This document shows, in pieces, positions 25,761-59,875 of a stretch of 64,000 bases of DNA. A model generated the notes under the pieces. The model had not been told where the DNA came from. It did not search any database and saw only the letters and a program-made list of their open reading frames with translations. Within the stretch, counting starts at the first letter, position 1. Each line of letters begins with the position of its first letter. A program made the translations under genes and the position numbers. This stretch comes from an uncultured Candidatus Saccharibacteria bacterium (GTDB lineage: Bacteria; Patescibacteriota; Minisyncoccia; UBA6257; 2-01-FULL-56-20), in the NCBI GenBank assembly GCA_964484655.1, contig CAZAFA010000002.1, forward strand, positions 123,860 through 187,859, given 5' to 3'.

Positions 25761-25778
25761 GAGGGCTTTTTCGCCGTC

Positions 25779-26105
25779 ATGATACCGCGCGCCCTCCGAG
25801 CGGACGTTCCTGCCGTGCTCGCGGCGAATCCGCGGCCGCTGCGCCTCCCGTGGGCGAGCGTGCGCGTGCTCGGTACCGAAGGGGAGGGAGGCATCGCGGT
25901 CGTGGTTCCCAAGAAAGCCGCGCGCCTGGCGGTCGATCGCCACAGGGCGAAGCGCCGCGTGGCGGCGGCGCTCTTGGCTTCGCGGAAGCCAGGATATATG
26001 GTCGTGGTGACGCTCATGCCGCCCGGCACGCGCGTCCGCGGACCCCGTCTGCGGGCGTGGTGCGACGAGCTGTGGGCCCGTATACTCGACTCCACGCATG
26101 CTTGA
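25779..26105 (+). CDS. rnpA: RNase P protein component
   Basis: 108 aa, basic, VVPKKAARLAVDRHRAKRR (RNR motif region); canonical position after rpmH. Confidence 0.75.
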   Translation: MIPRALRADVPAVLAANPRPLRLPWASVRVLGTEGEGGIAVVVPKKAARLAVDRHRAKRRVAAALLASRKPGYMVVVTLMPPGTRVRGPRLRAWCDELWARILDSTHA

Positions 26106-28359: not shown

Positions 28360-28380
28360 GGGTGAAGTATAAGCTATTGC

Positions 28381-28818: not shown

Positions 28819-28825
28819 GTGGATA

Positions 28826-29659
28826 TTATTTCAGGACGCGATAGATGCGGTAAGGGCCTCCTCTAGGGTAGGGTCCGCCATTGAAATAGAAATCAGGAGC
28901 GCTGCGCCAGACGAACTTTTTCTGGCCTGAGGAATTCGAGATGACGCTCGTACACCCCTGATTAAGGCAGATGCCGGTGTGATTCGACCTGGATCCGGTC
29001 ACGGCCACGATGTCTCCGCATTTGGCGTCCGATTGGGAGATCTCCTGGCCACGACCACCCCGGAATATGCTCTCCATGCCTCTGACGGTATTCCCCACGG
29101 GGATGAGACCCGCATTTTTCATGATATTGCTGACAGACCAAGCGCATGCCTGCCTCCCCCCTCCCGGTCCGGAACTGGTATCCGTCCCGTAATATGCATT
29201 CGCTGCATTGCAGATGAGTCCGGGGATATTGTCGGCTCCGCCGATCTGCTGGACCTGCTGGTCCGTGAATCCTGCCCGCATGTCCTTGATGGAGTATCCG
29301 CCGAACGAGCTCTCCACCTTCGAGTCCCGTATCCGGGGAAGCTCGAGGTAGTTGAGCCCGGGGTTGATGATCCCGAGGAGCGTCGCCGCCCCCACCAGCA
29401 GCAGGAGGCCGATGAGCGCCTGCACGATCCGGTCCCAGGCGTCGGCGAGCTTCCCCGGGTTCCCCCGCGAGGCCGTGTACTCCACCGCCCCGTAGACGAT
29501 CGAGGCCACCGCGAGGATCGAGGCCGCCCCGAGCGCCAGCAGGTACCCGTTCTGGATGAACCCGAGGATCCCGTACTGGTTGATGTCCACCGGGCCGGGC
29601 ACGGCGGTGATGACGCGGAAGGCGTCGGCGGCGTGCGCGGGAGAGACGAGCGATATCAC
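28826..29659 (-). CDS. CHAP-domain peptidoglycan hydrolase with N-terminal membrane segment
   Basis: Catalytic Cys in QACAWSVSNIM and His in SNHTGICLNQGC; spacing and context match the CHAP (Cys,His amidohydrolase/peptidase) fold. Confidence 0.6.
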   Translation of the reverse strand: MISLVSPAHAADAFRVITAVPGPVDINQYGILGFIQNGYLLALGAASILAVASIVYGAVEYTASRGNPGKLADAWDRIVQALIGLLLLVGAATLLGIINPGLNYLELPRIRDSKVESSFGGYSIKDMRAGFTDQQVQQIGGADNIPGLICNAANAYYGTDTSSGPGGGRQACAWSVSNIMKNAGLIPVGNTVRGMESIFRGGRGQEISQSDAKCGDIVAVTGSRSNHTGICLNQGCTSVISNSSGQKKFVWRSAPDFYFNGGPYPRGGPYRIYRVLK

Positions 29660-29661
29660 GA

Positions 29662-30351
29662 TCAGAACGTCGCCGCGGGAAGCACGCGCACGGATCCGCG
29701 CACGGATTCTTCCTTGTTCTGGGGATGCGTGATTGAGAGGCTTAGGAGGACGGCCTCAGGCGGACCTTCTACGGTGAGGACGAGCTGCTGGGGATTCTCG
29801 TTAGCGGAGGGGGGCTGGTTGTCCACGGACCAGCGGTAGATGAGGTCCGTGGCCCTGATGACATTGAATGCGTACGGCACCGCGACGAAGGTGTTCTCGC
29901 CCTCGCTCAGCCGCGGGCTGCTGATGGGGCGTATGACCGCCTTCGGTTTGGTCAGAGGCACGGATATGGACTTGAGCGTGTCCGTGAAAGGCGCGCCGAT
30001 GATCTCAACGCGGGCATCGAGGCTGTCTTGATGGAAGCGCTGGATCGGAACAGTGATCGCCTGCAGGCCGAAGCCGGTCTCGTAGAGCTCGTCGTTCACG
30101 TACCAGCGCACCTCGTATCGGGAAAGGTCAGCCGGCTGCCCGTTCACCAGGGCTTCTGCCAGGATGATGACCGTTCCTCCGCCAGCGGCGGCCACCCTGC
30201 CCTGATAGCTGGCCGGCGCGAAGCCGTTGCTGCGCCAGGACATCATGATCTCGCTGCTCGCGGACTGCCGGGCGACCGGGGTCTGGGCAAGCGCGGTCCG
30301 GATGCCCGCCAAGGACGCGACAAGCGCCAATAACGCGAGCAGCCTGTGCAT
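29662..30351 (-). CDS. secreted hypothetical protein
   Basis: Signal peptide MHRLLALLALVASLAGIRTALAQ. Confidence 0.45.
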   Translation of the reverse strand: MHRLLALLALVASLAGIRTALAQTPVARQSASSEIMMSWRSNGFAPASYQGRVAAAGGGTVIILAEALVNGQPADLSRYEVRWYVNDELYETGFGLQAITVPIQRFHQDSLDARVEIIGAPFTDTLKSISVPLTKPKAVIRPISSPRLSEGENTFVAVPYAFNVIRATDLIYRWSVDNQPPSANENPQQLVLTVEGPPEAVLLSLSITHPQNKEESVRGSVRVLPAATF

Positions 30352-30368
30352 GGGCGGATTATACCCGA

Positions 30369-31160
30369 TTACGAGGAGTTAGGCGTATTATGGGCCCTGC
30401 GTTCCGCCTCGCGCGTCGCCTGTTCGCCGGAGACGTCGATGTTGGCCAGGAGCTCAGTGAAGCCAGGATTGATCTCCCGCTCGACGTCGGCATATATGTC
30501 TGGGCCTGAGTCCCCGTCGGGGCGGTTACGGAGCTTGCCAGGGATGCGCTGGCTCTGCGTCGCGATCCGCTGACGATGCCGTTCAGGGAGGCCGCGGAGC
30601 TTCCCCGGAAGCTTCCGGTTGATACGGTTCCATTCGTGGTCGAACTGCTTGAGGCGTTCCTCTGACGCCGCCCCGAAGATCTTGTTCTTCGAGAGGCGGC
30701 TTCCCGGCTTGCCTCCTCCTGCAAGGGTCCCCTTCTGGGTCATCCTTCCGCGAGCTCCAGTCGGGACCTTGCCCTTCGGAGCCGGCACCTTCTCGGCAAC
30801 CCGCCGGAGCGTCTCGTTCCTGTCGATGGCGATAACTATGAGGATACCGAGCGTATAGAGCGGGAGGAGATCGACGATAGGAATCAGCTCAGCAAGCCAT
30901 GTAAGTACGTTGGCTGCGATCTGCCGGAACTGCGAAGCTCCGACGTAATAGAGATATCCGATGATGGCGATCTCGCAGATCCAGGCGATCGCATCGGTGA
31001 TCGGGATGCCGAGTTCCGCGTAGTTTATCGCGTCCAGGACTATCGTGAATATGAGCAGCGCGACTGCCCCGATCGTGCCGATCTTATGCTGCTTCGCCGC
31101 CGCGTGCTCACGATCGGCTTCGGATGGTATGCCCAGGGCCTTTTCCTGGTATGGGTCCAT
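30369..31160 (-). CDS. hypothetical integral membrane protein with basic C-terminal tail
   Basis: About 3 TM helices, then an R/K-rich region; T4SS-locus context. Confidence 0.45.
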   Translation of the reverse strand: MDPYQEKALGIPSEADREHAAAKQHKIGTIGAVALLIFTIVLDAINYAELGIPITDAIAWICEIAIIGYLYYVGASQFRQIAANVLTWLAELIPIVDLLPLYTLGILIVIAIDRNETLRRVAEKVPAPKGKVPTGARGRMTQKGTLAGGGKPGSRLSKNKIFGAASEERLKQFDHEWNRINRKLPGKLRGLPERHRQRIATQSQRIPGKLRNRPDGDSGPDIYADVEREINPGFTELLANIDVSGEQATREAERRAHNTPNSS

Positions 31161-31163
31161 CTT

Positions 31164-32885
31164 CTATATGAGCCCGGATTCCTCCAGGAGCTGCTGCGGG
31201 TTGGTGGTGATGAGCTTGTCCTCGTAGAACGAGGGGATGATCTGGATCGCGATATGCCGCTGTCCGGCGAAGAAGAGGCCGGTGCCGACCTCGGCGGTCA
31301 GCAGCAGGTTCTTCTCCGAGTCGGTCAGGTTGAAGGCCTTGCCGACGATGTCGATCGTCGCCGGAGCCTGCTTGAGGAGCAGCTGCGAGGACGAGTTCGT
31401 GATGATCGGGCGTCCGAACGGCGAGCGCAGGAAGTCTTCGACGTCCTGCGTGATTGTCGAGACGCCGAGATAGTACTTGCGCGCGCGCTTCACGAGCCCG
31501 AAGAGGAAGTTCGCCGAGTCCTCGTTCTTCATCATGATCCATGCCTCGTCGATGATGAGGATGCGCTTCTGGAACTGGGCTCGGATGAGGTTCCAGATGA
31601 AGTTCAGGATGACGTACATGGCGATCGGGCGGAGCTGCTCTTCGAGGTCGCGGATGCAGAAGACGATGAGGCGGTTGCTCAGGTCGATGTTGGTCGCCTT
31701 GTTCATGAAGCCGGCGAAGCTGCCCTCCGTGTACTTGTAGAGCCGCTCGGCGAGGGCGCGGCCGCCGTCGATGCTCCGCAGGACCGTCTCGAGGTCCTTA
31801 AGGACCGGCGGCTGGGCGTTGGCGAAGTCCTCGCCTGCGACGATCTCGCGGCTGGCGTAGGTCTCGGTGATGGCGCGGTCGATGAGCGCGTCCTCCTCGT
31901 TGGTGATGTTGCCGAGCATGAGGCGGACCAGGCCCGCGACGGAGACGATATGGCTGCGCAGCACGTCGGACGCCGCCTCGTCCTTCGGGATGATCGGGAT
32001 GTCGAACGGGTTGATCGTGTGCTCGCTCGTGAGCGAGATATTGAAGAAGCTGCCGCCGAACGCCTCCGTCAGGCGCTGGTACTCGTTCTCCGGATCGATG
32101 ACGATGACGTGCGTGCCCATCATCAGGGAGCGGATGATCTCGAGCTTGGTCGCGTAGCTCTTGCCGGAGCCGGACTTCGCGAAGACGACCTGGTTCGCGT
32201 TCTCGAGGCTGAAGCGGTCGAAGATGACGAGGCTGTTGTTGTGGCGGTTCACGCCGTACAGGATCCCCTCCTCGCTCATGAGGTCTTCCGAGACGAAGGG
32301 GTAGAAGCTGGAGAGCGGGCCCGAGTTCATCGGCGAGGTAACGTTGATCTTGTCCTGCGCGAGCGGGACCGTGCTCAGGAGTCCCTGCAGCTGCTGGAAG
32401 AGCGCCGGCTTCACGTAGACGAGCTTGGCCTCGAGGATCGAGACGACCTTGTTCTCGAGCTTGGCGAGCAGCTGCTCGGACTCGGCGTAGATCGTGATGT
32501 AGACGCCGACCGTGAAGAGGCGCTCCTCTGCCTGCTGGAGCGTGTCGCGGAGCGATTCCACGTTGTCGAGCGCGGTCTCGAGCATCGGGTCGCGGACCAG
32601 GCCCTTGTCCTGGTTGGTCGCGAGCTGGGCCTCGACCTGCGCCGCCTTCTTCCGGAGGTTCTTGAGCGCGAGGCCCGTATCGAACGGATTGACGAATATG
32701 GCGATGTCGAGCAGCTCGGCGAGGTTCACGATCGGCTCGAACCATCCCGTGACGAGGTAGTTCGGGTAGCCGAAGAAGAACAGGGTCTTGGCGTACTTCG
32801 TCCCGACCTTGAGGAACGAGGAATGCACCTCGACGCCTGCGGGCGAGATGATCGGCTTGGCAGCGTTGAAGGCGGAATCAGGCAT
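31164..32885 (-). CDS. type IV secretion system ATPase, VirB4/TrbE/CagE family
   Basis: Walker A FAKSGSGKSYATK, Walker B-like ILIIDEAW, VirB4 C-terminal ATPase domain pattern; 573 aa. Confidence 0.85.
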   Translation of the reverse strand: MPDSAFNAAKPIISPAGVEVHSSFLKVGTKYAKTLFFFGYPNYLVTGWFEPIVNLAELLDIAIFVNPFDTGLALKNLRKKAAQVEAQLATNQDKGLVRDPMLETALDNVESLRDTLQQAEERLFTVGVYITIYAESEQLLAKLENKVVSILEAKLVYVKPALFQQLQGLLSTVPLAQDKINVTSPMNSGPLSSFYPFVSEDLMSEEGILYGVNRHNNSLVIFDRFSLENANQVVFAKSGSGKSYATKLEIIRSLMMGTHVIVIDPENEYQRLTEAFGGSFFNISLTSEHTINPFDIPIIPKDEAASDVLRSHIVSVAGLVRLMLGNITNEEDALIDRAITETYASREIVAGEDFANAQPPVLKDLETVLRSIDGGRALAERLYKYTEGSFAGFMNKATNIDLSNRLIVFCIRDLEEQLRPIAMYVILNFIWNLIRAQFQKRILIIDEAWIMMKNEDSANFLFGLVKRARKYYLGVSTITQDVEDFLRSPFGRPIITNSSSQLLLKQAPATIDIVGKAFNLTDSEKNLLLTAEVGTGLFFAGQRHIAIQIIPSFYEDKLITTNPQQLLEESGLI

Positions 32886-33549
32886 CGGTCTTTTCGGGGG
32901 CGGCTACGGGGAGGTTGTCCCGCTCGACCGAGTCGGGATTGTAGAAGTTGTAGTAGAGCTCGATGAGCTCCTGGTCGCTCAGGACCGTCGTCTCGAGGCC
33001 GATCTGGTGGATTCCCTCCACCACTGCGTCAACGCGCTGCTGGAGCTGGCTCGCGTTCTCCTTGAACTGCTGCTCGGCGTTCGCCTTCCCCTGCTCGGGG
33101 TCCTTCTTGCGTCCGAAGAACGGCAGCGAGCTCGTGAGGGAGGTCGCCGAAGGCAGCGTCGTCGGATAGAACGGGACCACGACCAGGAAGATCTTGCGCA
33201 TGATGGCGAACTGCGCGACGAAGTCCCTGACGAACTTCTGGTACTCCGTGATCTGGTTGCGGAGGAGGCCGCTCGGCTCGTTGTTGCGACGGGATTCGAG
33301 CATGGCAAGGTAGCGCTCGATGTTGACCTTCCGGGAGTGCACGACGATCTGGAGCTGATAGTCGAGGCTGTTGAGGAATCCCTGGAAGGACTGGATCATG
33401 ACCCCCTGCTCCTCCTCGCTCTTGAGCGCGAAGTTCGTGCCGCCGACCATGACCACGCGGAGCAGGCCGCCGGCCTTGAGGATGACGATGCCGTCGCGGA
33501 TGTCCGCGATGTCGACCAGGTCCTGGGAATTCGCCGCGTTAGCCGCCAT
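32878..33549 (-). CDS. hypothetical protein (T4SS-locus)
   Basis: Coupled (8-nt overlap) to the VirB4 start; no recognisable motif. Confidence 0.4.
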   Translation of the reverse strand: MAANAANSQDLVDIADIRDGIVILKAGGLLRVVMVGGTNFALKSEEEQGVMIQSFQGFLNSLDYQLQIVVHSRKVNIERYLAMLESRRNNEPSGLLRNQITEYQKFVRDFVAQFAIMRKIFLVVVPFYPTTLPSATSLTSSLPFFGRKKDPEQGKANAEQQFKENASQLQQRVDAVVEGIHQIGLETTVLSDQELIELYYNFYNPDSVERDNLPVAAPEKTDA

Positions 33550-33583
33550 ATGCGCTCATTATTCGCGATAGAGTGCGGCCGCG

Positions 33584-34090
33584 CTAGGCGCTGAAGTCCA
33601 CGCGCTTGGCGGCGCGGAGCTCGCCGGTGACCTGGCGGAACACCTCGAAGCGGCTGGAAGGCGCTTCCGTGGCGAGCTGCTTCGCCTCGACCTTGCTGCC
33701 GGTCTCCACGTACTGCCAGGCCTTCTTCAGGCTCGTGCCCGAGATGATGCTCTCCAGGTTGAGCCCGCTTCCCGTCGTGCTCATGGTCTCAGGCGTCTTC
33801 GGCAGGTTCGGGCGCTCTGGCTGCCAGAGATAGAGCTGCGGGTTCCAGTAGAAGAAGAAGCCCAGGACGGCGATCTTCGAGAGCGGCTGTCCGTTGACCT
33901 TGAGGAAGGCCATGCTGCCTCCCGCTGCGCCAACGAGGATCGCGAATACGATGAAGAAGAAGCTCTGGAATACGAAATACAGGGCGAAGATGACGCCTGC
34001 CGTGATACAGAGATAGATGAACTGCCGGATCGTGAACGGTCCGGCGATCTTGTCCTCCGTGTCGATGAACTGGGGTACCTGGTACTGCAT
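33584..34090 (-). CDS. small two-TM membrane protein, possible VirB3/PrgI-like
   Basis: Two adjacent hydrophobic helices (FIYLCITAGVIFALYFVF / FFFIVFAILVGAAGGSMAF). Sits just upstream of the VirB4 module, as VirB3-like genes do. Confidence 0.45.
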   Translation of the reverse strand: MQYQVPQFIDTEDKIAGPFTIRQFIYLCITAGVIFALYFVFQSFFFIVFAILVGAAGGSMAFLKVNGQPLSKIAVLGFFFYWNPQLYLWQPERPNLPKTPETMSTTGSGLNLESIISGTSLKKAWQYVETGSKVEAKQLATEAPSSRFEVFRQVTGELRAAKRVDFSA

Positions 34091-34111
34091 GCGCCTTCTG
34101 GCGCAAGTCTA

Positions 34112-35104
34112 TCACGCCGCAGGCGGCGGCGAAGCGGGAGGAACGTCCTGGATCGGAGCGGGCGCCGGCATCGGCGGAGCGCTCGCAGGCTCGCTGTAGT
34201 TCACGGTCGGGAGCGGCTTGCGGCCGAAGCGGCGCGCGTGCCACGGAGCGATACGGTGCAGGAACGTGCCGAAGATTCCGCTCGCAGGGGGATCGTCGTT
34301 CGGGGGCGTCGCCTGCTGCGTGGTGACGACCTCGATGCTGGGTTGGACGGCGGGCGTGTCGAAGACGGGTGCCGGGGCAGCGGAAAGCGGGACGGGCGCC
34401 GGAATCTCCGCGGGGAGCGGCTGCGGCGGCACGTAGTCGACCGCGCTGATCTCCGGAAGCGGCGTGGCGCGCTCGACGAACACCGAGCGGAACTCCGCGT
34501 CCTTGCGCGGCGCGGCAGGGATGCCGAGGTCGATATGTGCTGCCCGCTGCGGGCCAGGGGTCGCCACAGTGCTGCGGGAGATGTCGCCGGTGTCCTTGAT
34601 GTCGAAGCGGGCGGTCGGCAGAGCGGTTTCCGAGGCTATCGTATCGCGATAGAGCGGGACGGGTGCCGGGATCCCGGAGGGCATCGGGAAGCCCTGCGGG
34701 GGCTTGATGTCCCCGACCGGAAGGGATGCGGGAACGACAGGCGATACCGGGACCGGCAGCGGGAGCTCGGTGGCGCCGCTCGGCTCGGTCGAGAGTTCGC
34801 CGACGCCGATGCCGAAGGCGACGAAGTCGCGCGCGAGCGGCATGAAGATGCGCGCCTTCACGTCCTCGTACAGCGCCGAGGCCTTCTCGCTGGGGAGGCC
34901 CAGCTCGTCCTCGATCACGTCGCGAAGGTCCGAGAAGTCGAGGTCCTTGATCTCGACGTCGAAGAGAATGACGGGGAGGTCCGTCTCGGATTCCGGAAGC
35001 CCGTACTTCTGCTCCAGGTCGGCGATGATCTGGTCCATCTCGTCGCTCCAGAACCAGTCGCGGATGCGACGGGGTACGGATTGGAATTTCTCCTCGATAG
35101 TCAT
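34112..35104 (-). CDS. proline-rich hypothetical protein
   Basis: Acidic N-terminal domain, then P/A/V-rich repeats (PLPVPVSPVVPASLPV, PAPVPL...). Confidence 0.45.
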   Translation of the reverse strand: MTIEEKFQSVPRRIRDWFWSDEMDQIIADLEQKYGLPESETDLPVILFDVEIKDLDFSDLRDVIEDELGLPSEKASALYEDVKARIFMPLARDFVAFGIGVGELSTEPSGATELPLPVPVSPVVPASLPVGDIKPPQGFPMPSGIPAPVPLYRDTIASETALPTARFDIKDTGDISRSTVATPGPQRAAHIDLGIPAAPRKDAEFRSVFVERATPLPEISAVDYVPPQPLPAEIPAPVPLSAAPAPVFDTPAVQPSIEVVTTQQATPPNDDPPASGIFGTFLHRIAPWHARRFGRKPLPTVNYSEPASAPPMPAPAPIQDVPPASPPPAA

Positions 35105-35113
35105 AGGAATCTT

Positions 35114-37465
35114 TTATTTTCCCTTCTCTTTACCCTTCGCTTTTTCCGCCCGGCTCTCACGGCGTGCTTTGCTAAGCTGTTCCATCTTGGCTGTATCAAT
35201 ACGACCAGTGAAATTCACATTATTTTTAAGTGTCTTATACATTGACGTGATGCGAGTCTTAGCATCCTTTATTGAGATACGGTTTGTTTTCTGCTCTGAA
35301 GTGAGATTGACATTGGAATCTTCGTTGTAGAAGAAATCACCAAAAAGGCCAATTTCTTTCTTCTTTTCTTCGGAAAGGGCTTCGAACTTCTGTATTTTCT
35401 GTCGAGCTCTTTCGATTACTTCCGTAATTCGCTCAATTTGTTCGATATTCATATCACCAATTTGCTTGAGCTGAGAATTATTGAGAGCTGTTGTACGTAG
35501 AACGACGCCCTGTCGGGTTTCCAATCCTTCATCCTTTTGATAGTCGAATAGCGAATCATCGAGTGCAAGAGTTGATATATCGTCCCCTTTCACCGAAGGA
35601 ATTTGTGCTGCGACTGCTTCCTGAGTCGTCATTGTACGACTCTTGTCTTTCGTCTTGCCGCGCGGGGCGAGGGCTGCAAGTTGCGGAGCCGAGGGAAGGA
35701 TTTCCTTCAGTACCCCGGAATCCTGGGCCCGCTTAAGTTGACGCTCGAGATCTTTCTTATAAGCTTCTTCGACTTTCTTATATTGCTCACTAGATTGCAG
35801 TCTTTTCTTCTCTTCCTTCACCGCCTTCTTGAGATCCTTACCTTTTAGGCCATCAGCCTTCGCTTTCTTCTCGTAGTCAGCTAGTGCTTTCTCGACTTCC
35901 GGGCTCGCAGATGTCGCGAGGCCGCCGAGCGCCTTCTTCTCCTTGAGGAGCTTGAAGATGGCCGCCTCGCGGTCGGGGTTCGCGGCGAGCTGGCCGGAAG
36001 CCAGCCGGCGCCGCTCCGCGAGCAACGCGCTGGTAGTGAGGTTCTTGAGGCTGTCCTGCTCGTCCTGCACGCGCTGCTCGACCGACTTCTTGTTCGCGAC
36101 GCCGGCGTCCGCCATGTAGCGTCCTACCGTACCCGCGCCTGCCATGCGCGCGATCCTGCTGTTAGAGGAGAGCGTGGAGAGCCTGCTGCCCATGCGCTGC
36201 AAGCGCGAGTTCCCATCCTTGTCCTTGCCCGACGTGCGCACGCGATCGAGCGTCCGCATGCCTGCCGCCGACGCTCTTCGCTTGACAGAGTTACCTACGG
36301 AAGCGAACGCAGCCTTGCCGGAGTCCATGAACTTGATGCCGAGCTTCGAGGAGAAGTACAGGCCGCCGTAGAGCGTCCCGGAGATGAGGATGAAATTGAG
36401 GCTGCTCGTGATGATCGGCTTCGCCGCCGCGCCGAAGGTCTTGAAGAGGAACCCGCTGATGCCGCCGCCAGCGGTATCGGCGCTGCCGAGACCCGTCAGC
36501 TGGGCGTCGTCGAGGACGTGGGCGCCATTGATGAAGGCCGCGGTCTTCATGCTCAGGTAGAGGAAGAACATCGCCATGGGGGCGAAGAAGGTCCACTTCA
36601 CGAACTTGTCCGACCAGTAGCTCACGAGGCCCCTGCCGAAGGGGAATATCCAGGCGAGCCATACCGCGGGCATGATGATGAGCAGGAGCGAGAGCGTCAC
36701 GTAGCGCGCGGCGAATGCGGCGAGCATGATGCCGAAGAAGATCACGAGCAGGATGCTCATGATGACGGTCATGTAGATGCCGGCGATCGCCGCGAACATG
36801 CCTGCGGTGTCGGCAGCGAACTTGCTCGTCGCGTCCGAGAAGATAGTCTCCTCCTTCACCTCGGTGCTGAATCCGGCGTTCAGGAAGGCCTTCTGGGGAT
36901 TGAAGGCTCCCGCGAGGTTGTCCGCGAATTCGAGGATGCCCACCCCGATATCCGCCGTGGGATTGGGGACGGAATTGTTGATGAAGAATTCCGTAAGCCT
37001 GTCCGAGAAGTTGATGGCGGTGCCTGCCAGGATGAGGCTGAAGTTCACGCCAATGGCGGCGATCACGATCTTCCAGAGCAGCTGCTTCGCGCCGTAGGTG
37101 TCGTACCGGATGATCGTCGCGACCGCCATGATGATCACCGCGGCGACGAAGGCAATGTTCGCGAAGGCGAGGACAATCGAGAATCCGAACTGGACCGAGG
37201 TTGAATTGACGAGGTCGAAGTTGAGCTTGAGGAGGAACTGGAAGAAGAAGACCTCGATGATCGTGATGATGTTCAGGAGGATGCCTATGAGGTAGGCGAT
37301 GTAGTAGGCAACCTTCTGGACGAGCGAGAAGGCGACATCGGATATGCCCGTGAGTTCGCCGACCCAGCCCAGGATGCCCGCGTGCGCTTCTTGAGGAACC
37401 AGAAAGGCAGCGCCTGCGAGGACCGCAGCCAGGACGAGAGAGACGGGTTTGATGCGCTTATTCAT
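35114..37465 (-). CDS. VirB6/TrbL-like polytopic membrane protein with long K/E-rich coiled-coil C-terminal domain
   Basis: About 8-9 TM helices in the N-terminal 420 aa. The C-terminal 360 aa are Lys/Glu-rich heptad-like; this AT-rich DNA is at 35150-35900. Confidence 0.65.
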   Translation of the reverse strand: MNKRIKPVSLVLAAVLAGAAFLVPQEAHAGILGWVGELTGISDVAFSLVQKVAYYIAYLIGILLNIITIIEVFFFQFLLKLNFDLVNSTSVQFGFSIVLAFANIAFVAAVIIMAVATIIRYDTYGAKQLLWKIVIAAIGVNFSLILAGTAINFSDRLTEFFINNSVPNPTADIGVGILEFADNLAGAFNPQKAFLNAGFSTEVKEETIFSDATSKFAADTAGMFAAIAGIYMTVIMSILLVIFFGIMLAAFAARYVTLSLLLIIMPAVWLAWIFPFGRGLVSYWSDKFVKWTFFAPMAMFFLYLSMKTAAFINGAHVLDDAQLTGLGSADTAGGGISGFLFKTFGAAAKPIITSSLNFILISGTLYGGLYFSSKLGIKFMDSGKAAFASVGNSVKRRASAAGMRTLDRVRTSGKDKDGNSRLQRMGSRLSTLSSNSRIARMAGAGTVGRYMADAGVANKKSVEQRVQDEQDSLKNLTTSALLAERRRLASGQLAANPDREAAIFKLLKEKKALGGLATSASPEVEKALADYEKKAKADGLKGKDLKKAVKEEKKRLQSSEQYKKVEEAYKKDLERQLKRAQDSGVLKEILPSAPQLAALAPRGKTKDKSRTMTTQEAVAAQIPSVKGDDISTLALDDSLFDYQKDEGLETRQGVVLRTTALNNSQLKQIGDMNIEQIERITEVIERARQKIQKFEALSEEKKKEIGLFGDFFYNEDSNVNLTSEQKTNRISIKDAKTRITSMYKTLKNNVNFTGRIDTAKMEQLSKARRESRAEKAKGKEKGK

Positions 37466-39785
37466 CGAGCAGAGTGAGCGGCAGGTTGCACGCCCTGTCC
37501 TTGAGGTTGTCCCGGGCGTCCTGGGCGAGCGACTGCATCTGGCCGTTCCGCGTGGTGGCGCGCGTCGCGAGAGTGGCGACCTGCGAATTGATGATGTCGA
37601 GGGAGCCGATGAGATCGGAGATCGCCATAGCGCTCGTCGCCGTATTGATGGCTTCCGTCGTGGAAGCGAGCTGCGCGATCACGGTCCCGATCGAGGTGCC
37701 GTCGGTGCTGACGCGCGGCGCGATCCGGTCTATGGCTCCGAGTCGCTGGCTCGCCGTCTCGGCGAGCGCAGGGCAGGTAGCGCCGACGGATATCAGGAGC
37801 GGCTGGGTCGAAGAGGCGTGCCCCGTCCAGGCCGCGATGTCGTTGCGGACGCTGCTCGCGCGACCCTGGTGGGCAGTAGCGAGCTGCAGGGCCTGCGCGC
37901 GGACCGAAGCGAGGCTCGACTGGTCCTCGCCGCCCCCGCTGGTGCTCGTGCCGTTGCCGTTCCCCGATCCGCCTCCGCTTCCGGACTCGCCGTTGAACAG
38001 GCCGAGCAACCCTCCTACCGCGAGATTGGTCAGTCGCGAGATCGCAGCATCCACTACCGCGGCGACGAGGCCGGCGAGATCGTTCGCGTTGACCACGTTG
38101 TCGAGCGTGCCGCCCAGCGACTTGGATACCTGGTCGGCGACAGCGCCGCCCGGAGTCGTCTGTTGCCAGCCGTCCGAGGCACACATCTCTACCTCGCAGG
38201 TCTGAAGATAGGGGTCACCGCCGTCGTAACAACGGATAAGCCTACGGAAGTTAGGGTCTCGCCTGAGCTCGTCAGCTTCGCGTTCATCAGCAGTTATAAC
38301 CTCCGTTTTAACGCACCGCCTCATACCCGTGTAGCCGCGGTTCGACTCCGCATTCGTTGAAGCGGATTCCTTCGCGCCGGCCGCTTCGTGCATGGCGGTC
38401 TCGCCGGCTACGACGATTGCGCCCCAGGCGTTGTTCTGCGGTTCGAGGATGAGAGTCGCGAATCCGATCCAGCCTCCTGACCTGAAGTCCTCGTAGAAAT
38501 CCTTCACGCTCGCGACGATCTGGTCCAGGGTGCAGGTGAATTGCTGATAGGGGTCGCGGGAGCCGCTGACGCTATTGGGGGCCGTAGCTCTGAGGAAGTC
38601 GGTCGTGAATGCGCGCAGGTTCTGGCAGAGCTTCGGCTCGATCTTGTTGATGAGCGTGTTGACCGCGCCTACCGCGCTGTCCTTAAGGAAGCCCTTCCAG
38701 TTGGTGATGAACTGCGGCTTACCGCCTCCTTGTACCCATTTGATCGTCTGTTGGATGAGACGGCCTACGATCTGGTTCTTGAGGATCTGCAGCGCGATGC
38801 TCTTAAGTTCCCTCACAATGAGCTGACCCCATGTGCCGTAGTCCGCGATGCCGTTGATGATCGTCTTGACGATGTGCCCGAAGTCGATGACCGGCCAGCC
38901 CGCGTTGGCGCGCGGGATACCAAGCAGCGAAGCCAGGAGGAGCGGCTTGTGCGCTCCTGAAGAGAGCGACTCGTACTGCAGCTGTTCGGCTTCCGCTTGG
39001 AGCTTGTTGCCCTCGTACGCGAGGAGCTCCGGATACTTCGTCGTGAAGACCACCGCCTTGAGCGGGTCGGTCGTGTAGTCGAGGTCGGTGAGCTTCCGGT
39101 TGAGCTCGAAGTAGGTCAGCGCCTGCTCGTGGAGCTTCTGCGCGGGAGCGGGCACGACCGCGTTGTAGAGCTTCTCCTGCGCCTGCGCGAGGAGGAAGTT
39201 GCTCGCCTCGATCGCCGCGGGCGTCGGCTGGCTCCCGCTCCGCGCCATCACTGCGCTCATGCCGCCGGACGTGGTGCTCGCCATGGAGAAGGTCTCCTCG
39301 AGCGTCGAGAGGTAAGCGTCGAGCTGCTCCTGGGTGTAGTTCTTGGCGACCTTCAGTCTGCTGCGGTCGATGGCGTACGTGGTCGGCGTGAGGGCAGCGT
39401 CGGTGACGTACTGGTCCACGACGTCCTGGAGGTTGTTCGGGAGGAGCACGCCGGTACCTTGGGTCAGGTCGGGGCCTTCAGGGTTGGCTTTGACGAAGTT
39501 GTAGGCGAGGCCCTTCGCGAGCTCGTCCGTGTAGTTCCCCTCGACATCGGTCCGCGGCGTGAACTCGGCTGCGAGGTCGTAGCCCTCGATGCGCGTCGTC
39601 GCGATATCCTCTACGAAAGCGCGGTCGCCGATCTTCGGGACCTGCTTCTGCGCCTGCTGCGTAGCGGCCGCAGGTCCCTCTCCTTTCTGCCGCGCGAGGC
39701 TCGTGAAGGCCAGGGACGCGGATCCGGCCAGGAGCGCGAGCACCAGGAACGTCGTGATGAGTTTACGGAGCTCGTGAGCCTGCAT
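37458..39785 (-). CDS. large secreted/surface protein of the T4SS-like locus
   Basis: Start placed at MQAHELRKLITTFLVLALLAGSASLA (signal/anchor). A G/S/N-rich linker (GESGSGGGSGNGNGTSTSGGGED) separates two domains; several conserved Cys residues. Confidence 0.55.
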   Translation of the reverse strand: MQAHELRKLITTFLVLALLAGSASLAFTSLARQKGEGPAAATQQAQKQVPKIGDRAFVEDIATTRIEGYDLAAEFTPRTDVEGNYTDELAKGLAYNFVKANPEGPDLTQGTGVLLPNNLQDVVDQYVTDAALTPTTYAIDRSRLKVAKNYTQEQLDAYLSTLEETFSMASTTSGGMSAVMARSGSQPTPAAIEASNFLLAQAQEKLYNAVVPAPAQKLHEQALTYFELNRKLTDLDYTTDPLKAVVFTTKYPELLAYEGNKLQAEAEQLQYESLSSGAHKPLLLASLLGIPRANAGWPVIDFGHIVKTIINGIADYGTWGQLIVRELKSIALQILKNQIVGRLIQQTIKWVQGGGKPQFITNWKGFLKDSAVGAVNTLINKIEPKLCQNLRAFTTDFLRATAPNSVSGSRDPYQQFTCTLDQIVASVKDFYEDFRSGGWIGFATLILEPQNNAWGAIVVAGETAMHEAAGAKESASTNAESNRGYTGMRRCVKTEVITADEREADELRRDPNFRRLIRCYDGGDPYLQTCEVEMCASDGWQQTTPGGAVADQVSKSLGGTLDNVVNANDLAGLVAAVVDAAISRLTNLAVGGLLGLFNGESGSGGGSGNGNGTSTSGGGEDQSSLASVRAQALQLATAHQGRASSVRNDIAAWTGHASSTQPLLISVGATCPALAETASQRLGAIDRIAPRVSTDGTSIGTVIAQLASTTEAINTATSAMAISDLIGSLDIINSQVATLATRATTRNGQMQSLAQDARDNLKDRACNLPLTLLDE

Positions 39786-39839
39786 AGTCTCTGATGAATT
39801 GTACGTTAAGCAGGCGCTACCGCACAACGAAAATGGGGA

Positions 39840-43026: not shown

Positions 43027-43054
43027 GTAATAATCCGGCTATACGTCGCAAAAT

Positions 43055-43299
43055 CCTGACAAACATATTTGTCAGGATTTTTCGTAGATGTTTAGCGATA
43101 AACATCTAAAGTGCGAAAAATGTTTAGCGACAAACATTTTTTGCTCGATTTCAGACAATTTTGTTTAGCGACAAACATTTTTCCGCTGACAAACATGTTT
43201 GTCAGACAAAAATTTGTTTAGCGACAAACATTTTCTTGAAAAATACGCATAGGAATGTTTAGCGACAAACATTTTTCCTCTGACAAACATGTTTGTCAG
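43055..43299. repeat. AT-rich array of eight palindromic sites: five B-type and three A-type
   Basis: B-type: ATGTTTAGCGA[C/T]AAACAT, five direct copies at about 43087, 43119, 43161, 43213 and 43254. A-type: CTGACAAACAT[G/A]TTTGTCAG, two perfect 20-bp palindromes at about 43186 and 43280, plus the variant CCTGACAAACATATTTGTCAGG at 43055. Confidence 0.85.
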
Positions 43300-43426
43300 A
43301 TGTCGCAAAATATCAATCTGTATTCTCTTTATTCCGGAATGGCGCATCCGGATTGCCTCGGTTCGAAAGTGAAGGCAATAATAGGTGCGTACTAAAACCA
43401 AATAGGTACAACTCAATAACAATCTA

Positions 43427-45995: not shown

Positions 45996-46412
45996 TCAGC
46001 GCGGCAGGACGTACAGGTAGTCGTAGACGTGCGGCCCGAAGACGAGGAAAGCTACGACGAGCGCCGTGATCGCGGAGAGCAGCACGGCGCCCGCGGCCAC
46101 GTCCTTCGTGTCGCGCGCGAACGGGTGATGGTCCGGCGAGGTGAGGTTGATGTCGATCTCGATGGCGGTGTTGATGGCCTCCGCGGTCAGAACGAGTCCG
46201 GAGGCGAGGACGAGCGCGAGCCACTCCGTGCGCGAGATGTCGAAGGCGATGCCGCCGATGACGGCGATGATCAGGATCGCGATCTGGACCCAGGCGTTGT
46301 GCGTGGTCGCGAAGAAGATCCGGAGACCGCGGCCTGCGTGCACGAAGCTCTTCGCTCTCCTGACGATCGAGAAGCGCTCGCGCTCGGGAAGGGTGTGCTC
46401 GGCGATCCGCAT
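45996..46412 (-). CDS. diacylglycerol/undecaprenol kinase (DgkA family)
   Basis: 138 aa, 3 TM, EAINTAIE (DgkA signature). Confidence 0.7.
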   Translation of the reverse strand: MRIAEHTLPERERFSIVRRAKSFVHAGRGLRIFFATTHNAWVQIAILIIAVIGGIAFDISRTEWLALVLASGLVLTAEAINTAIEIDINLTSPDHHPFARDTKDVAAGAVLLSAITALVVAFLVFGPHVYDYLYVLPR

Positions 46413-47623
46413 CAGGCCGTGAATGTCGCGAACCGGTGCTTGCCGACCTTCACCGTGATTGAGCCGGAAACCGGCGTTCCGGGATCGCCGATCTTCGCTC
46501 CGCTGCCCAGGTCGGTGACCGCTCCTTGGTCGAAGAGGCGCCTGCCGTCGGTCTTGGAATCGACGAGCGCGTGCATGACGAGCGCGTCGAGGAGCGCCGT
46601 CCCGGCGGGAACCGGGTATGACGGGATATCCGTCGGGATGCCACGCTCGCTGAAGGCTGCGATCCAGGATTCCTTCGCATGCTCCGCTGCCGCATCGTCG
46701 TGATACATGCGGACGATCTCCGTAGCGAGCTCGAGCTTGAGGTCCTTCGGGTTCGCGCCCTCGTCGAGTCGGCGCTTGATCGCCTCGACCTCGGCGACCG
46801 GCAGGCGCGTGCAGTCCAGGAAGACCTGCACGATGCCCTCGTCGGGAAGCGCCATGACCTTGCCGAACATGTCGGCAGGGGATTCGCCGAGTCCGACGCC
46901 CGTTCCCTTGCTCTTGCTCATGAGCGCCTCGCCGGTCGCGGGATTCTCCAGCAGCGTGGTCGCGAGGACGAACTTCTCGCGGTCCTGGTATCGCTTCACG
47001 AGCGTCCGGCCGGCCAGCATGTTGAAGGTCTGGTCGGTTCCGCCGATCTCCAGGTCCACCTCGAGCGCCACAGAGTCGTATCCTTGCATGAGCGGGTACA
47101 TGAATTCATGGACGTACAGCGGCTTCCGCTCTTTCAGCCGGCGCTCGAAGAGGTCGCGCTCGATCATGTGCTGGACCGTGAAGTTCGAGGCCAGGTCGAG
47201 CAGTTCCTCGAAGCCGAGCTTCGAGAGCCACTCGCTGTTGAAGCGGAACTCGATGGGGTTCTCCTGGTCGTCGAAGGGGAGTACCTTGCCGATCTGCTGC
47301 TTGAACGTCGCGAGGTTCTCCTGGACCTGCTCCTTGGTCAGGCGCGTGCGGACCGCGCCCTTGTCCGGGTCGCCGATCATGGCCGTGAAGTCGCCGACGA
47401 GCACGATGATGCGGTGACCGAGCTTGTGGAGCCGCTCGAGGAGGAGATAGTTCGTGGAGTGCCCCAGGTGGACGTAGGTGGAGGTCGGGTCGATGCCGAC
47501 GTAGGCCGTCAGGCGGCGTCCCGTGAGGAGCTCGGTCCTGAGCGCGTCGGCGCCCGGATAGACTGCTGCCACGGAGCGGGTGAGCAGCTCGTCGATCAGG
47601 GCGGGGTCGGTGACGGTCTTCAT
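46412..47623 (-). CDS. tyrS: tyrosyl-tRNA synthetase
   Basis: YVGIDPTSTYVHLGH (HIGH-type), KMSKS as EALMSKSKG; start at MKTVTD. Confidence 0.9.
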   Translation of the reverse strand: MKTVTDPALIDELLTRSVAAVYPGADALRTELLTGRRLTAYVGIDPTSTYVHLGHSTNYLLLERLHKLGHRIIVLVGDFTAMIGDPDKGAVRTRLTKEQVQENLATFKQQIGKVLPFDDQENPIEFRFNSEWLSKLGFEELLDLASNFTVQHMIERDLFERRLKERKPLYVHEFMYPLMQGYDSVALEVDLEIGGTDQTFNMLAGRTLVKRYQDREKFVLATTLLENPATGEALMSKSKGTGVGLGESPADMFGKVMALPDEGIVQVFLDCTRLPVAEVEAIKRRLDEGANPKDLKLELATEIVRMYHDDAAAEHAKESWIAAFSERGIPTDIPSYPVPAGTALLDALVMHALVDSKTDGRRLFDQGAVTDLGSGAKIGDPGTPVSGSITVKVGKHRFATFTA

Positions 47624-47670
47624 GAAGCAGAGTGTACCAGGCGTTGGCGGCTGCCTCACGCCGATTCCCG

Positions 47671-47733
47671 GGAATGTTTAGCGCCAAACATTCCTGACAA
47701 ACATGTTTGTCGCCCGGATTTGCTCGATTTCTG
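47671..47733. promoter_or_regulatory. second copy of the B+A palindrome module plus the shared 12-mer TTGCTCGATTTC
   Basis: GGAATGTTTAGCGCCAAACATTCC immediately followed by CTGACAAACATGTTTGTCG and TTTGCTCGATTTC; same arrangement as at 43119-43152 and 43254-43299. Confidence 0.8.
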
Positions 47734-47805
47734 AGCGGGTAAGGGGAGTCGAACCCCTGCCTTCTCCTTGGAAGGGAGACGCACTACCGCTATGCAATAC
47801 CCGCG
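47734..47805 (-). tRNA. tRNA-Gly (anticodon TCC)
   Basis: Folded by hand: acceptor GCGGGTA/TACCCGC, anticodon stem-loop TCTCC-CTTCCAA-GGAGA, T-arm GGGGT-TCGACTC-CCCCT. Confidence 0.8.
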
Positions 47806-47897: not shown

Positions 47898-47971
47898 GGC
47901 ACCCATAGCTCAACGGTTAGAGCAGTCGTCTTATACACGACCGGTTCCTGGTTCGAGTCCAGGTGGGTGCA
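47898..47971 (+). tRNA. tRNA with anticodon TAT (Ile-UAU type)
   Basis: Acceptor GCACCCA/TGGGTGC, D-arm GCTC-AACGGTTA-GAGC, anticodon arm GTCGT-CTTATAC-ACGAC, T-arm CCTGG-TTCGAGT-CCAGG, discriminator A; CCA not encoded. Confidence 0.7.
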
Positions 47972-47974
47972 CAG

Positions 47975-56982: not shown

Positions 56983-59423
56983 CGGGATCCGGCGCGCACG
57001 TCGACCGAGAGCGGCACGCCGAGCTCCGGCATCACCCCCTCCATCGCCGCGCGGATGCGCGGAACGAGCTCCTTCATGCTACCCGTCCGCACCTCGAGCA
57101 GCAATTCGTCATGGATCGTGAGGAGGATATGCGCGTCGTCGCCGGCGCTCACGAGGTCGCGTACCGCGATCATGGCCAGCTTGGCGATGTCGCCGCCGAG
57201 GCCCTGCACGGGCTGGTTGATGGCTGCGCGCTCGATCTCGGCCATGCGCCACGAGGGCGCGCTGCTCGCGAGCTCGGGGAAGTAGCGCCGCCTGCCCGTG
57301 CGCGTCTCGGTGTAGCCGGTCTTCCGCGCGGCGGCGAGGATCTCCTCCTGCCAGCGCTTCACGGCACCGAACCGCTCGAAGTAGCGCGCGATGAACGTGG
57401 CCGCCTCGTTCTTGGGAAGGCCGCTCGCCTTCGCGAACGCGGTAACGCCCATGCCGTAGACGAGGCCGAAGTTCAGCGTCTTGGCGATGCGCCGCTCCTC
57501 CTTGGTGACGGCGTCCTGGTCCTTGCCGAGCACGACCGCCGCGGTGGCCGCGTGGATGTCCTCACCGTTGCGGAACGCGCGCGTCATGGCCTCGTCGCCC
57601 GAGAGCGCCGCGACGATGCGCAGCTCCAGCTGCGAGTAGTCGAACGAGACGAGGCGGTAGCCGCGGCGCGCCACGAAGCAGTCGCGCAGGGGACGGCTCC
57701 ACGCGCTCTCCTGGGGGATGTTCTGGAGGTTGGGGTTGCGCGAGGAGAGGCGTCCCGTCGCCGCGCCGGTCTGGACGTACTCGGTGCGGAGCGTGCCTGC
57801 CTCGTCGACGCGCTCGAGGAGCGGCTCGACGAACGCGGTGCGGATCTTGAAGTGCTCGCGGTACGCGAGGATGAGCGGCACGACCGGATGCTGGTCGGTG
57901 ATCTCCTCGAGGATCTCCGCGCGCGTGGACTCCTTCCGCTTGCCCTTAACCTGGAGGTTGAGCGTGCGGAAGAGCACGTCGCCGACCTGCTTGGGGGAGT
58001 TGAGGTTGAACGTGCTGCCGGCGAGCGCGTAGACCTGCTGCTCGACCGAGGCGCAGGTTGCCGCGATCTCGCCCGCGAGCTTCTCGAGCGCCGCGCGGTC
58101 GACCTGGATGCCGCGCATCTCGGTCTCGGCGAGCACGCGGAGGACCGGCAGCTCGATATCCTCGTAGACGCGCGTCATGCCTTCGCGCTCGAGCGCGGCG
58201 CGCAGCTGGTGGCGCAGCGCGGCCGTATCCGCGTCATCGCCCGAGGCCACGACGCTGCGTACCGCATCCTCGCCGTACGCCTTCAGGTCCGGGTAGAGGA
58301 GCCAGGTGATGATGCCGAGGTCGTCGTAAGGCGGCAGGAGGTCGCGGCCGTTCGCCCAGAGCTCCTGCAGCGCTTCCTTGAGCGCGTAGCCCGCGACCGG
58401 CATGTCCGCTGGCCGCGAGTCCGGGTTCTCGAGATAGCTGTCGAGGTCGCAGACGGGCGCGGCATCGCCGCCAGCTTCCGCCTCCGTGCGCGCGAAAGAG
58501 CTCACGCGCGGCGCGGATTTCCGCGCGGCCTTCTTCGGCGCGACCGGCTTCGCGAGCGGATCCTTGGAGGCGAGCGCGGCGGCGAGGCTCTGGAAGCCGA
58601 CCTCGAAGAAGTAGTCGCGGAGGCCGCGGCGGTCCAGCTCGGTGACCGCCATCTCGTCGAAGCTCGGGAGCTCCACGTCGACGTTGGGCTCGAGGGTCGC
58701 GAGGACCAGCGACGCCCGCAGCTGCGTGCCGTCGTCGGGAAGCTTCGCCTTGAGCTTCGGCAGCTCGTCGAGGTGCGCGAGCAGCTCCTCGACCGTCGGA
58801 TACGTGTTCAGGAGCTGCGCCGCGGTCTTCGGGCCGATGCCCGGCACGCCCGGGATGTTGTCCGAAGTGTCGCCGACGAGCGCCTTGTAGTCGGGGATCT
58901 GCTTGGGGCGGATGCCGTACTTCTCGATGACGCCCGCCGTGTCCATCACGGCCGTGTCGGTCACGCCCTTCCTGAGGGTCCGCGCGACCACGGTGCCGTC
59001 GTCGACCAGCTGCAGCAGGTCCGAGTCGCTCGAGAGCATCTCGATGCGCAGGTCGGGCGTGCCGCGCAGGCGCGTCACGATCGTCGCGATCACGTCGTCC
59101 GCCTCGTAGCCGGCCATCTCCCGGAGCGGCACGCCGTATCGCGCGAAGAGCTCCTTGGCTTCGTCCATCTGGCTCGCGAGGTCGTCAGGCATCGGCGCGC
59201 GGTGCGCCTTGTAGCGGTCGTCGAGCGTCTTGCGGAAGGTAGGCGCCGGCGTGTCGGATGCCGCGACGACGTAGTCGGGGCCGGTGCGCAGGATCGCGAG
59301 GAGCAGCCGCGCGAGGCCGTATACCGCCTGGATGGGGCGGCCGTCGGGCGTGGTCAGCGGCGGCAGCGCGTGATAGGCGCGGTGGATGATCGAATGCGCG
59401 TCGATGATTAGGAGCTTCTTCAT
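56955..59423 (-). CDS. polA: DNA polymerase I (5'-3' exonuclease + polymerase; no recognisable 3'-5' proofreading motifs)
   Basis: Start at MKKLLIIDAHSIIHRAYHAL (FEN domain). Polymerase motifs A (DYSQLELR), B (RRIAKTLNFGLVYG) and C (HDELLLE). Length 822 aa. Confidence 0.9.
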   Translation of the reverse strand: MKKLLIIDAHSIIHRAYHALPPLTTPDGRPIQAVYGLARLLLAILRTGPDYVVAASDTPAPTFRKTLDDRYKAHRAPMPDDLASQMDEAKELFARYGVPLREMAGYEADDVIATIVTRLRGTPDLRIEMLSSDSDLLQLVDDGTVVARTLRKGVTDTAVMDTAGVIEKYGIRPKQIPDYKALVGDTSDNIPGVPGIGPKTAAQLLNTYPTVEELLAHLDELPKLKAKLPDDGTQLRASLVLATLEPNVDVELPSFDEMAVTELDRRGLRDYFFEVGFQSLAAALASKDPLAKPVAPKKAARKSAPRVSSFARTEAEAGGDAAPVCDLDSYLENPDSRPADMPVAGYALKEALQELWANGRDLLPPYDDLGIITWLLYPDLKAYGEDAVRSVVASGDDADTAALRHQLRAALEREGMTRVYEDIELPVLRVLAETEMRGIQVDRAALEKLAGEIAATCASVEQQVYALAGSTFNLNSPKQVGDVLFRTLNLQVKGKRKESTRAEILEEITDQHPVVPLILAYREHFKIRTAFVEPLLERVDEAGTLRTEYVQTGAATGRLSSRNPNLQNIPQESAWSRPLRDCFVARRGYRLVSFDYSQLELRIVAALSGDEAMTRAFRNGEDIHAATAAVVLGKDQDAVTKEERRIAKTLNFGLVYGMGVTAFAKASGLPKNEAATFIARYFERFGAVKRWQEEILAAARKTGYTETRTGRRRYFPELASSAPSWRMAEIERAAINQPVQGLGGDIAKLAMIAVRDLVSAGDDAHILLTIHDELLLEVRTGSMKELVPRIRAAMEGVMPELGVPLSVDVRAGSRWGSLERFA

Positions 59424-59875
59424 GACTCGTCCCAGGTCAGCGTGATGCGGCGCTCGCGCTCGTGCGCGCCGTGCTCGATCCGCACGTCGAGCTGCGGACC
59501 GAAGAGCTCGCCGCCGATCTCCGGCCATTCGACGACGACCAGGTTCTTCCGCTCGGCGAGGACCTCCTCCAGTCCGAGGCTCGCGAGCTCCTCGACGCTC
59601 CGCAGGCGGTACGCGTCGACGTGGTACGCATCGCGGAACGGGCCTCCCGCGAGCGGGTAGCGGTGCATGAGCAGGAAGGTCGGGCTCGCGATGGTCCCCT
59701 GGACGCCGAGCGCTCCCAGGAGGCCCTGCGTGAACGCCGTCTTCCCGGCGCCGAGCTCGCCGCGGAGCGTGACCAGGAAGGCGCGCTCACGCGGCATGCG
59801 CGCCAGGCGCTCCGCCGCGGCTGCGGCGAGCGCTTCGGTCTCCTCCGGCGCGTTCGTGATGACGGTCTCGTGCAT
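59420..59875 (-). CDS. tsaE: tRNA threonylcarbamoyladenosine biosynthesis protein TsaE
   Basis: P-loop GELGAGKTAFTQGL, conserved N-terminal ...EEATEALAAA...; stop overlaps the polA start. Confidence 0.8.
   Translation of the reverse strand: MHETVITNAPEETEALAAAAAERLARMPRERAFLVTLRGELGAGKTAFTQGLLGALGVQGTIASPTFLLMHRYPLAGGPFRDAYHVDAYRLRSVEELASLGLEEVLAERKNLVVVEWPEIGGELFGPQLDVRIEHGAHERERRITLTWDES

Follow-up and report, generated by a model that had tools for sequence, protein, structure and literature searches.

A chromosomal tRNA-Ile with an encoded UAU anticodon as the probable AUA decoder of a GC-rich Patescibacterium

We found that a 64-kb stretch of bacterial DNA (hereafter, the window) carries a tRNA-Ile gene in which the anticodon is encoded directly as UAU. 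The reading that we favour, with a probability of roughly 70%, is that this chromosomal tRNA-Ile(UAU) gene is functional, has been inherited vertically and serves as the AUA decoder of a high-GC Patescibacterium, where it replaces tRNA-Ile2(CAU) and TilS. In the pathway that we propose, the tRNA would be transcribed and receive its 3'-CCA from an enzyme, A37 would probably be converted to t6A, the IleRS of the cell would charge the tRNA with isoleucine, and AUA would be read by Watson–Crick pairing between U34 and A. The tRNA would stand in for tRNA-Ile2(CAU) and TilS in the same way that UAU isoleucine tRNAs replace lysidine in Mycoplasma (M. mobile), Bifidobacterium and Neorickettsia (PMC3575796).

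ARAGORN called four tRNAs in the window, one of which was Ile(tat), a 74-nt molecule with a cloverleaf of 7, 4, 5 and 5 bp and A73 as its discriminator base (Table 1). Rfam RF00005 matched this gene at 47899–47971 over the full length of the model (1–71 of 71) with 69.7 bits (E = 3.8e-13), against a gathering threshold of 29 bits. The minimum-free-energy structure of the 74 nt was a clean cloverleaf (−29.3 kcal/mol, z = −3.47), and none of 200 shuffled sequences was as stable. Together, the ARAGORN call and the Rfam match bear out the first-pass annotation, which had described an Ile-type tRNA with an encoded UAU anticodon. The loop that it had folded by hand, CTTATAC, was correct, as the same loop is present in the sequence and in the cmscan alignment, with the anticodon TAT at 47932–47934. 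Its span of 47898–47971 located the gene but started one base too early; base 47898 is a G that lies beyond the acceptor stem and is not paired. The gene does not encode CCA (the 3' end reads ...TGGGTGC-A-CAG), which implies that the 3'-CCA is added enzymatically. A scan for promoter and terminator consensus sequences around the gene returned no match. Genes for tRNA-Ile(UAU) carry the name tRNA-Ile3 in the paper describing tRNAscan-SE 2.0.

Table 1. Positions of the tRNA-Ile(UAU) gene and of other features of the window
Feature	Position	Strand	Basis
tRNA-Ile gene, anticodon TAT (UAU)	47899..47972	+	ARAGORN; Rfam RF00005; cloverleaf MFE; family covariation
Anticodon loop CTTATAC (C32 U33 U34 A35 U36 A37 C38)	47930..47936	+	Sequence and cmscan alignment
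tRNA-Gly(UCC), divergent neighbour, 94 nt from the 5' end of tRNA-Ile(UAU)	47733..47804	-	ARAGORN; Rfam, 68 bits
tyrS, tyrosyl-tRNA synthetase	46412..47659	-	ORF and translation
TsaE, component of the t6A37 pathway	59420..59875	-	Pfam PF02367, E = 4e-32
T4SS pilin-like protein, type IV secretion-like stretch	28826-29659		
VirB4/TraG-type ATPase, type IV secretion-like stretch	31164-32885		
PrgI-family protein, type IV secretion-like stretch	33584-34090		
Two proteins of ~785 aa, type IV secretion-like stretch	35114-37465, 37458-39827		No Pfam match

The body of the tRNA also has features of an isoleucine tRNA. The E. coli isoleucine identity set, reportedly defined by Nureki et al. in 1994, consists of A35, U36, A37, A38, A73, C4:G69, U12:A23 and C29:G41, and the window tRNA has every one of these elements except at position 38, which is C, not A. 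The IleRS of E. coli favours A38. Across 5,426 genomes, the best E. coli match of the window tRNA was the tRNA-Ile gene located between mug and nfeF (77% over 61–67 nt). This gene has the anticodon CAT, which identifies it as ileX, the lysidine-dependent tRNA-Ile2. The window tRNA and ileX have D-arm, variable-region and T-arm features in common, and ileX and ileY, acting with TilS, perform the job that we propose here, dedicated AUA decoding. By contrast, the window tRNA has T34 rather than C34, and C38 rather than A38. Encoded C34, the mark of a tRNA-Ile2(CAU) and TilS substrate, is therefore replaced by a T, and lysidine is neither needed nor possible on this tRNA. The designation 'Ile2-type' in the first-pass annotation was thus well founded as regards kinship, given A73, U12:A23, C4:G69, C29:G41, the U36-A37 context and ileX as the nearest E. 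coli relative. Judged by its sequence, the window tRNA probably derives from a tRNA-Ile2-type gene without itself being a member of that class. The combination of an Ile2-like body with T34 agrees with an origin in a CAU-type gene through a C34-to-T change, a route proposed by Taniguchi et al. (PMC3575796).

The host is apparently a CPR bacterium of unusually high GC content, and the GTDB species genomes seem to include no close relative of it (top TyrRS identity, 51%). When the TyrRS encoded in the window was compared with 185,579 species genomes, the best 80 matches all came from Patescibacteria-type MAGs, at 43–51% identity, with labels that included Paceibacterota and Taylor-, Zambryski-, Nomura-, Uhr- and Moranii-bacteria. 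These matches indicate a Paceibacteria-like CPR bacterium without a close sequenced representative. Among the related loci we found no near relative of the window; the best tRNA identity was about 85%, and synteny was limited to cmk and tyrS. The GC content of the window is 65.5%, a little under the value of about 67% given by the first-pass annotation, with a GC3 of about 0.9 in coding regions, and the 80 related loci span 30–59%. Bifidobacterium, one of the tilS-less genera, is also GC-rich.

The same tRNA was present in other members of this group. In five of the 80 related loci (L008, L014, L019, L023 and L035; GC 40–56%), a tRNA-Ile(tat) lies 5–9 kb upstream of tyrS. The linkage to tyrS in five genomes whose TyrRS proteins are 46–50% identical indicates vertical inheritance. 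The loop CTTATAC, including C38, is conserved in all six copies (the window and the five loci), as are A73, C4:G69 and U12:A23, and these copies were found without the loop as a search pattern. Searching metagenomes with a pattern composed of the conserved D arm, anticodon loop and T arm yielded at least 120 contigs with the same tRNA type (GC 30–73%), 118 of which were called Ile(tat) by ARAGORN. Over 116 aligned tRNA-Ile(UAU) sequences, 99.8% of cells in the cloverleaf were paired and 15 of the 21 pairs showed compensatory changes. In the acceptor and anticodon stems, where no pair was fixed by the search pattern, compensatory changes were seen at 12 of 12 pairs. The covariation score of these 116 sequences was 0.73, compared with 0.17 for shuffled sequences and at most 0.14 when partners were slid. 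A73 was present in 100% of the sequences and C4:G69 in 71%. The pairing, the covariation and the invariant A73 demonstrate a conserved, selected tRNA family, not a chance fold.

Further features of these loci were apparent. C1:G72, which is unusual among bacterial elongator tRNAs, forms the first pair in about 40% of cellular tRNA-Ile(UAU) copies (L008, L019, L023 and about 40 metagenome loci) and in none of 33 viral copies. A small high-GC subgroup (L098, L114, L134 and L161) combines G1:U72 with an encoded CCA. We also observed a tRNA-Ser(ACT), with A34, adjoining tRNA-Ser(GCT) in four related loci (L005, 4272–4359; L011, 991–1078; L014, 7242–7329; L019, 7190–7277) and in two metagenome loci; apart from Arg-ACG, bacteria very rarely have anticodons that start with A (PMC4013482).

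We then considered the codon that such a tRNA would read. In 57 curated ORFs of the window (17,810 codons), we counted 67 ATA, 26 ATT and 889 ATC codons. AUA thus amounts to 3.8 per 1000 codons and is used 2.6 times as often as AUU, contrary to the expectation of the first-pass annotation that it must be rare at high GC. The codon is found in 32 of the 57 genes, including dnaA, dnaN, ftsK, cmk, nusA, ppa, clpP and the gene for a class A PBP. Its presence in core genes such as dnaA, nusA and clpP means that AUA is needed for essential proteins. A type IV secretion-like stretch at 27220–39827 holds 22 of the 67 ATA codons. We considered and rejected the idea that the surplus of AUA relative to AUU is a signal in its own right, as the GGA/GGU ratio is similar and A3 is approximately equal to T3 overall. 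In a tblastn comparison with Patescibacteria homologues, the residues aligned to 20 ATA sites were I (34%), F (22%), L (21%), V (19%) and M (2%), whereas M made up 43% of the residues aligned to ATG sites. In these alignments AUA behaves as an Ile-like codon and not as a Met codon.

To our knowledge, TilS and lysidine are usually held to be essential and near-universal in bacteria, the exceptions being a handful of Mollicutes, Bifidobacterium and Neorickettsia. ARAGORN detected no CAU tRNA in the 64-kb window, which also contained no ORF with a PP-loop motif (SGGxDS) and gave no match to E. coli TilS in tblastn. That this genome follows an alternative AUA strategy, without TilS and tRNA-Ile2(CAU), is likely but unproven; both genes are absent from the window. 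When the window and about 2 Mb of related loci were searched by PP-loop motif and tblastn, no TilS was found where about one match was expected, and the only PP-loop ORF was one GuaA. Likewise, about 0.9 Mb of UAU-bearing contigs contained neither TilS nor an Ile2-like CAU tRNA, in a low-power search for which 0.6–1.5 TilS genes were expected, so that finding none (P = 0.22–0.55) is not significant.

Published tRNA counts offer a wider view of the lysidine system in this phylum. Table S2 of a study of Patescibacteria tRNAs (PMC13011429), which does not mention UAU, lists tRNA numbers per amino acid, not per anticodon, for 95 complete Patescibacteria genomes. Because ARAGORN labels every CAU tRNA as Met, the Met column is the sum of fMet, Met and any Ile2(CAU). 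The second 'Ile' tRNA in these counts would be the UAU species, which matches the UAU tRNAs that we saw directly in related loci. Two or more Ile tRNAs together with no more than two CAU tRNAs were recorded for 39 of the 95 genomes, comprising Dojkabacteria (7 of 7), Microgenomatia (12 of 12), Paceibacteria (13 of 20), two ABY1, two Gracilibacteria and single members of Doudnabacteria, UBA1384 and WWE3. The reverse arrangement, at most one Ile tRNA and at least three CAU tRNAs, was recorded for 45, comprising Saccharimonadia (29 of 36), JAEDAM01 (7 of 7), Kazan-3B-28, five Paceibacteria and three Gracilibacteria. Ten genomes had both Ile ≥2 and CAU ≥3, and one had neither. Among the 20 Paceibacteria, the remaining two genomes comprised one with both and one with neither. 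The split between Ile and CAU counts was strong (odds ratio 175, Fisher p = 7e-16, ignoring phylogeny). These counts also bear on the view of the first-pass annotation that an encoded UAU is rare. This view holds for surveyed bacteria, where the figures run from 9 to 19 (tilS is lacking from 9 species, a TAT gene is recorded for 19 species, and the tRNAscan-SE 2.0 survey counts 17 genomes; PMC3575796, PMC8450103, PMC4013482), but it does not hold for Patescibacteria, where the direct finds in five of 80 related loci and at least 120 metagenome contigs are joined by published counts that imply about half of 95 genomes.

One alternative is that TilS and tRNA-Ile2(CAU) are retained elsewhere in the genome, and that the UAU tRNA is a redundant, second reader of AUA. 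We consider this unlikely, although it is the strongest of the competing explanations. Coexistence does occur, as the 10 genomes with both signatures suggest, including one of the 20 Paceibacteria, and Taniguchi et al. inferred coexistence of UAU and TilS for Lactobacillus casei and L. plantarum, Cyanothece and Ferrimonas (PMC3575796). The window, 64 kb from a roughly 220-kb contig, is a minor part of the genome, and tilS, tRNA-Ile2(CAU) and ileS may lie outside it. Against redundancy, of the 14 Paceibacteria in which Ile-anticodon tRNAs number at least two, 13 carry just two CAU tRNAs, and the searches of the window and, at low power, of the UAU-bearing contigs point in the same direction. 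We therefore favour replacement of the lysidine system over its duplication, in which case TilS and tRNA-Ile2(CAU) would be missing from the whole genome.

The surroundings of the gene are those of a core chromosomal locus. On one side lie genes for UvrD/PcrA, an M23 peptidase, NusA, inorganic pyrophosphatase (ppa), ClpP, diacylglycerol kinase and TyrRS, followed by tRNA-Gly(UCC), and on the other side are genes for a TrmB-family regulator, a RodZ-like protein, FtsK, cytidylate kinase (cmk) and cysteine desulfurase. Farther away, the window contains dnaA, dnaN, yidC, ruvAB, infC-rpmI-rplT and the genes for Pol I and TsaE. No integrase, phage gene or tRNA array was found around the tRNA in the window by ORF annotation, Pfam and ARAGORN.

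This context bears on a second alternative, that the gene is an accessory tRNA acquired from a phage or mobile element to help a GC-rich host read a rare codon ending in A. Our search pattern also matched 33 IMG/VR contigs (L207–L239), some of up to 398 kb, in which Ile(tat) often lies in phage-type tRNA arrays that also contain Arg(tct), Leu(taa) and Gly(tcc), and some of the metagenome matches may therefore be viral. The phage-encoded copies share the D-arm, loop and T-arm pattern of the window copy, including C38; moreover, the window tRNA adjoins a tRNA-Gly(tcc), and the type IV secretion-like island is 8 kb away. In contrast to the phage copies, which stand in arrays alongside Arg(tct) and Leu(taa), the window copy is single and flanked by core genes, with tyrS, the TrmB-family regulator, the RodZ-like gene and ftsK nearby and nusA and clpP on the tyrS side. 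The recurrence of the tyrS linkage in divergent genomes argues further against a phage origin, as does the use of AUA in essential core genes and not just in the island, and we regard such an origin as highly improbable. Less probable again is that the tRNA does not act as an isoleucine tRNA in practice, because it is a pseudogene, is charged by another synthetase or reads an AUA codon that has taken on another meaning (Met, for instance, as it has in mitochondria): C38 does depart from the preference of the E. coli IleRS, and altered codes are known in other Patescibacteria, namely Absconditabacteria and Gracilibacteria (PMC8629427), but the Rfam score and perfect cloverleaf, the strong family covariation with its invariant A73, the alignment of AUA sites with Ile, Val, Leu and Phe and so rarely with Met, and the E. 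coli tRNA-Ile as best match all speak against it.

Several other features of the window were recorded. A dnaN-dnaA cluster at 22900–26808 is accompanied by yidC and an R3H (Jag-like) gene, so that the window probably includes the region of the chromosomal replication origin; the cumulative GC skew rises monotonically over the whole window, with no visible switch. The stretch at 27220–39827 has a lower GC content (58–63%) and a type IV secretion-like or conjugation-like gene set (Table 1). In an AT-rich gap upstream of nusA (43030–43310), we observed an array of inverted-repeat motifs consisting of five copies of TGTTTAGCGACAAACAT and three copies of the palindrome ACAAACATGTTTGT. The two motifs are related, and the pair is found once more at 47674–47710, in the 74-nt gap that separates tRNA-Gly(UCC) from the start of tyrS, next to the tRNA-Ile(UAU) locus. 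The number of copies expected by chance is about 0.01–0.02. Probably, the motifs either serve one DNA-binding regulator as operators or make up a promoter element specific to this lineage.

Decoding by tRNA-Ile(UAU) would depend on a suitable synthetase and on modification of the anticodon loop. Acceptance of U34 would call for Arg or Lys at the position of Trp905 in a type-1 IleRS, or else for a type-2 enzyme. We did not find ileS in the 64-kb window, and the related loci contained one true IleRS (L049, 1,058 aa), the other matches being ValRS-like. The L049 enzyme is of type 2, matching IleRS2 of P. megaterium (8c8u) at 1e-224 compared with 2e-92 for IleRS1 of S. aureus (1ffy); its matches to the P. 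megaterium, T. thermophilus and eukaryotic cytoplasmic enzymes all fall at about 1e-215 to 1e-224. It is MupA/MupB-like and lacks the C-terminal zinc-binding domain. Type-2 IleRS is present in the tilS-less Bifidobacterium and Neorickettsia (PMC3575796) but also in many bacteria that contain TilS, so this enzyme, which comes from one relative and not from this genome, is only compatible with tilS-less decoding. As for modification, the TsaE gene in the window indicates a t6A pathway. The t6A modification is expected on tRNAs that decode ANN codons, and the U36-A37 context is a substrate. By these established rules, the TsaE pathway should modify A37 of tRNA-Ile(UAU). The tRNA-Ile(UAU) of M. 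mobile has t6A37 and an unmodified U34 (PMC3575796). Candidate means by which misreading of AUG might be avoided are an unmodified U34 combined with ribosomal discrimination, modification of U34, or the conserved C32/C38 loop.

The tRNA has counterparts in several known systems. In M. mobile (Taniguchi et al. 2013, PMC3575796), as we propose here, an encoded UAU reads AUA in a reduced genome, on a tRNA with an Ile2-like body and a U36-A37 (t6A) context, and the UAU tRNA was likewise proposed to replace TilS and lysidine. M. mobile, unlike the window, is AT-rich; its IleRS is of type 1 with Arg865 in place of a conserved Trp, its U34 is unmodified and AUG is rejected by its ribosome (PMC3575796); the window loop, for its part, has C38, and the one related Patescibacteria IleRS is of type 2. 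Bifidobacterium and Neorickettsia are tilS-less, encode UAU and have a eukaryote-type (type-2) IleRS, but they belong to unrelated phyla (PMC3575796, PMC8450103). Outside bacteria, the tRNA-Ile3(UAU) of Nanoarchaeum, an ultra-small symbiont, and of Korarchaeum is encoded with UAU in place of a modified-C system (PMC8450103). The eukaryotic tRNA-Ile(UAU) has an encoded UAU too, but it depends on pseudouridylation, with pseudouridine at positions 34 and 36 (PMC8450103).

The class of mechanism is therefore known, and what is new here is the host lineage, in which tRNA-Ile(UAU) is probably the ordinary AUA tRNA. The literature that we searched, which covered few subscription journals, contained nothing relevant on UAU, tilS or lysidine in CPR, Patescibacteria, Parcubacteria or Saccharibacteria. 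On a larger scale, we tentatively suggest, as a proposal whose chances we put somewhat below even, that TilS and lysidine have been given up by Dojkabacteria, Microgenomatia, most Paceibacteria and parts of ABY1 and Gracilibacteria, which would decode AUA by means of a tRNA with an encoded UAU anticodon, a conserved C32...C38 loop and, in many cases, C1:G72, whereas Saccharimonadia and Absconditabacteria would keep CAU and TilS. If this is true, these lineages would form a tilS-less radiation far larger than any other in bacteria and would provide a natural test of ancestral UAU decoding, as proposed by Taniguchi et al. 2013 (PMC3575796). At the scale of the phylum, such a loss would add to the bacteria known to decode AUA with a plain UAU anticodon, would raise the question of how AUG escapes being read as isoleucine, and would supply many independent lineages in which to follow how tRNA-Ile, IleRS type and the ribosome have evolved together. 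It would also affect marker sets for genome completeness that include TilS. The TilS marker TIGR02432 is part of the GTDB bac120 set. The wider interest of the finding lies in this apparent phylum-level split between UAU and CAU systems.
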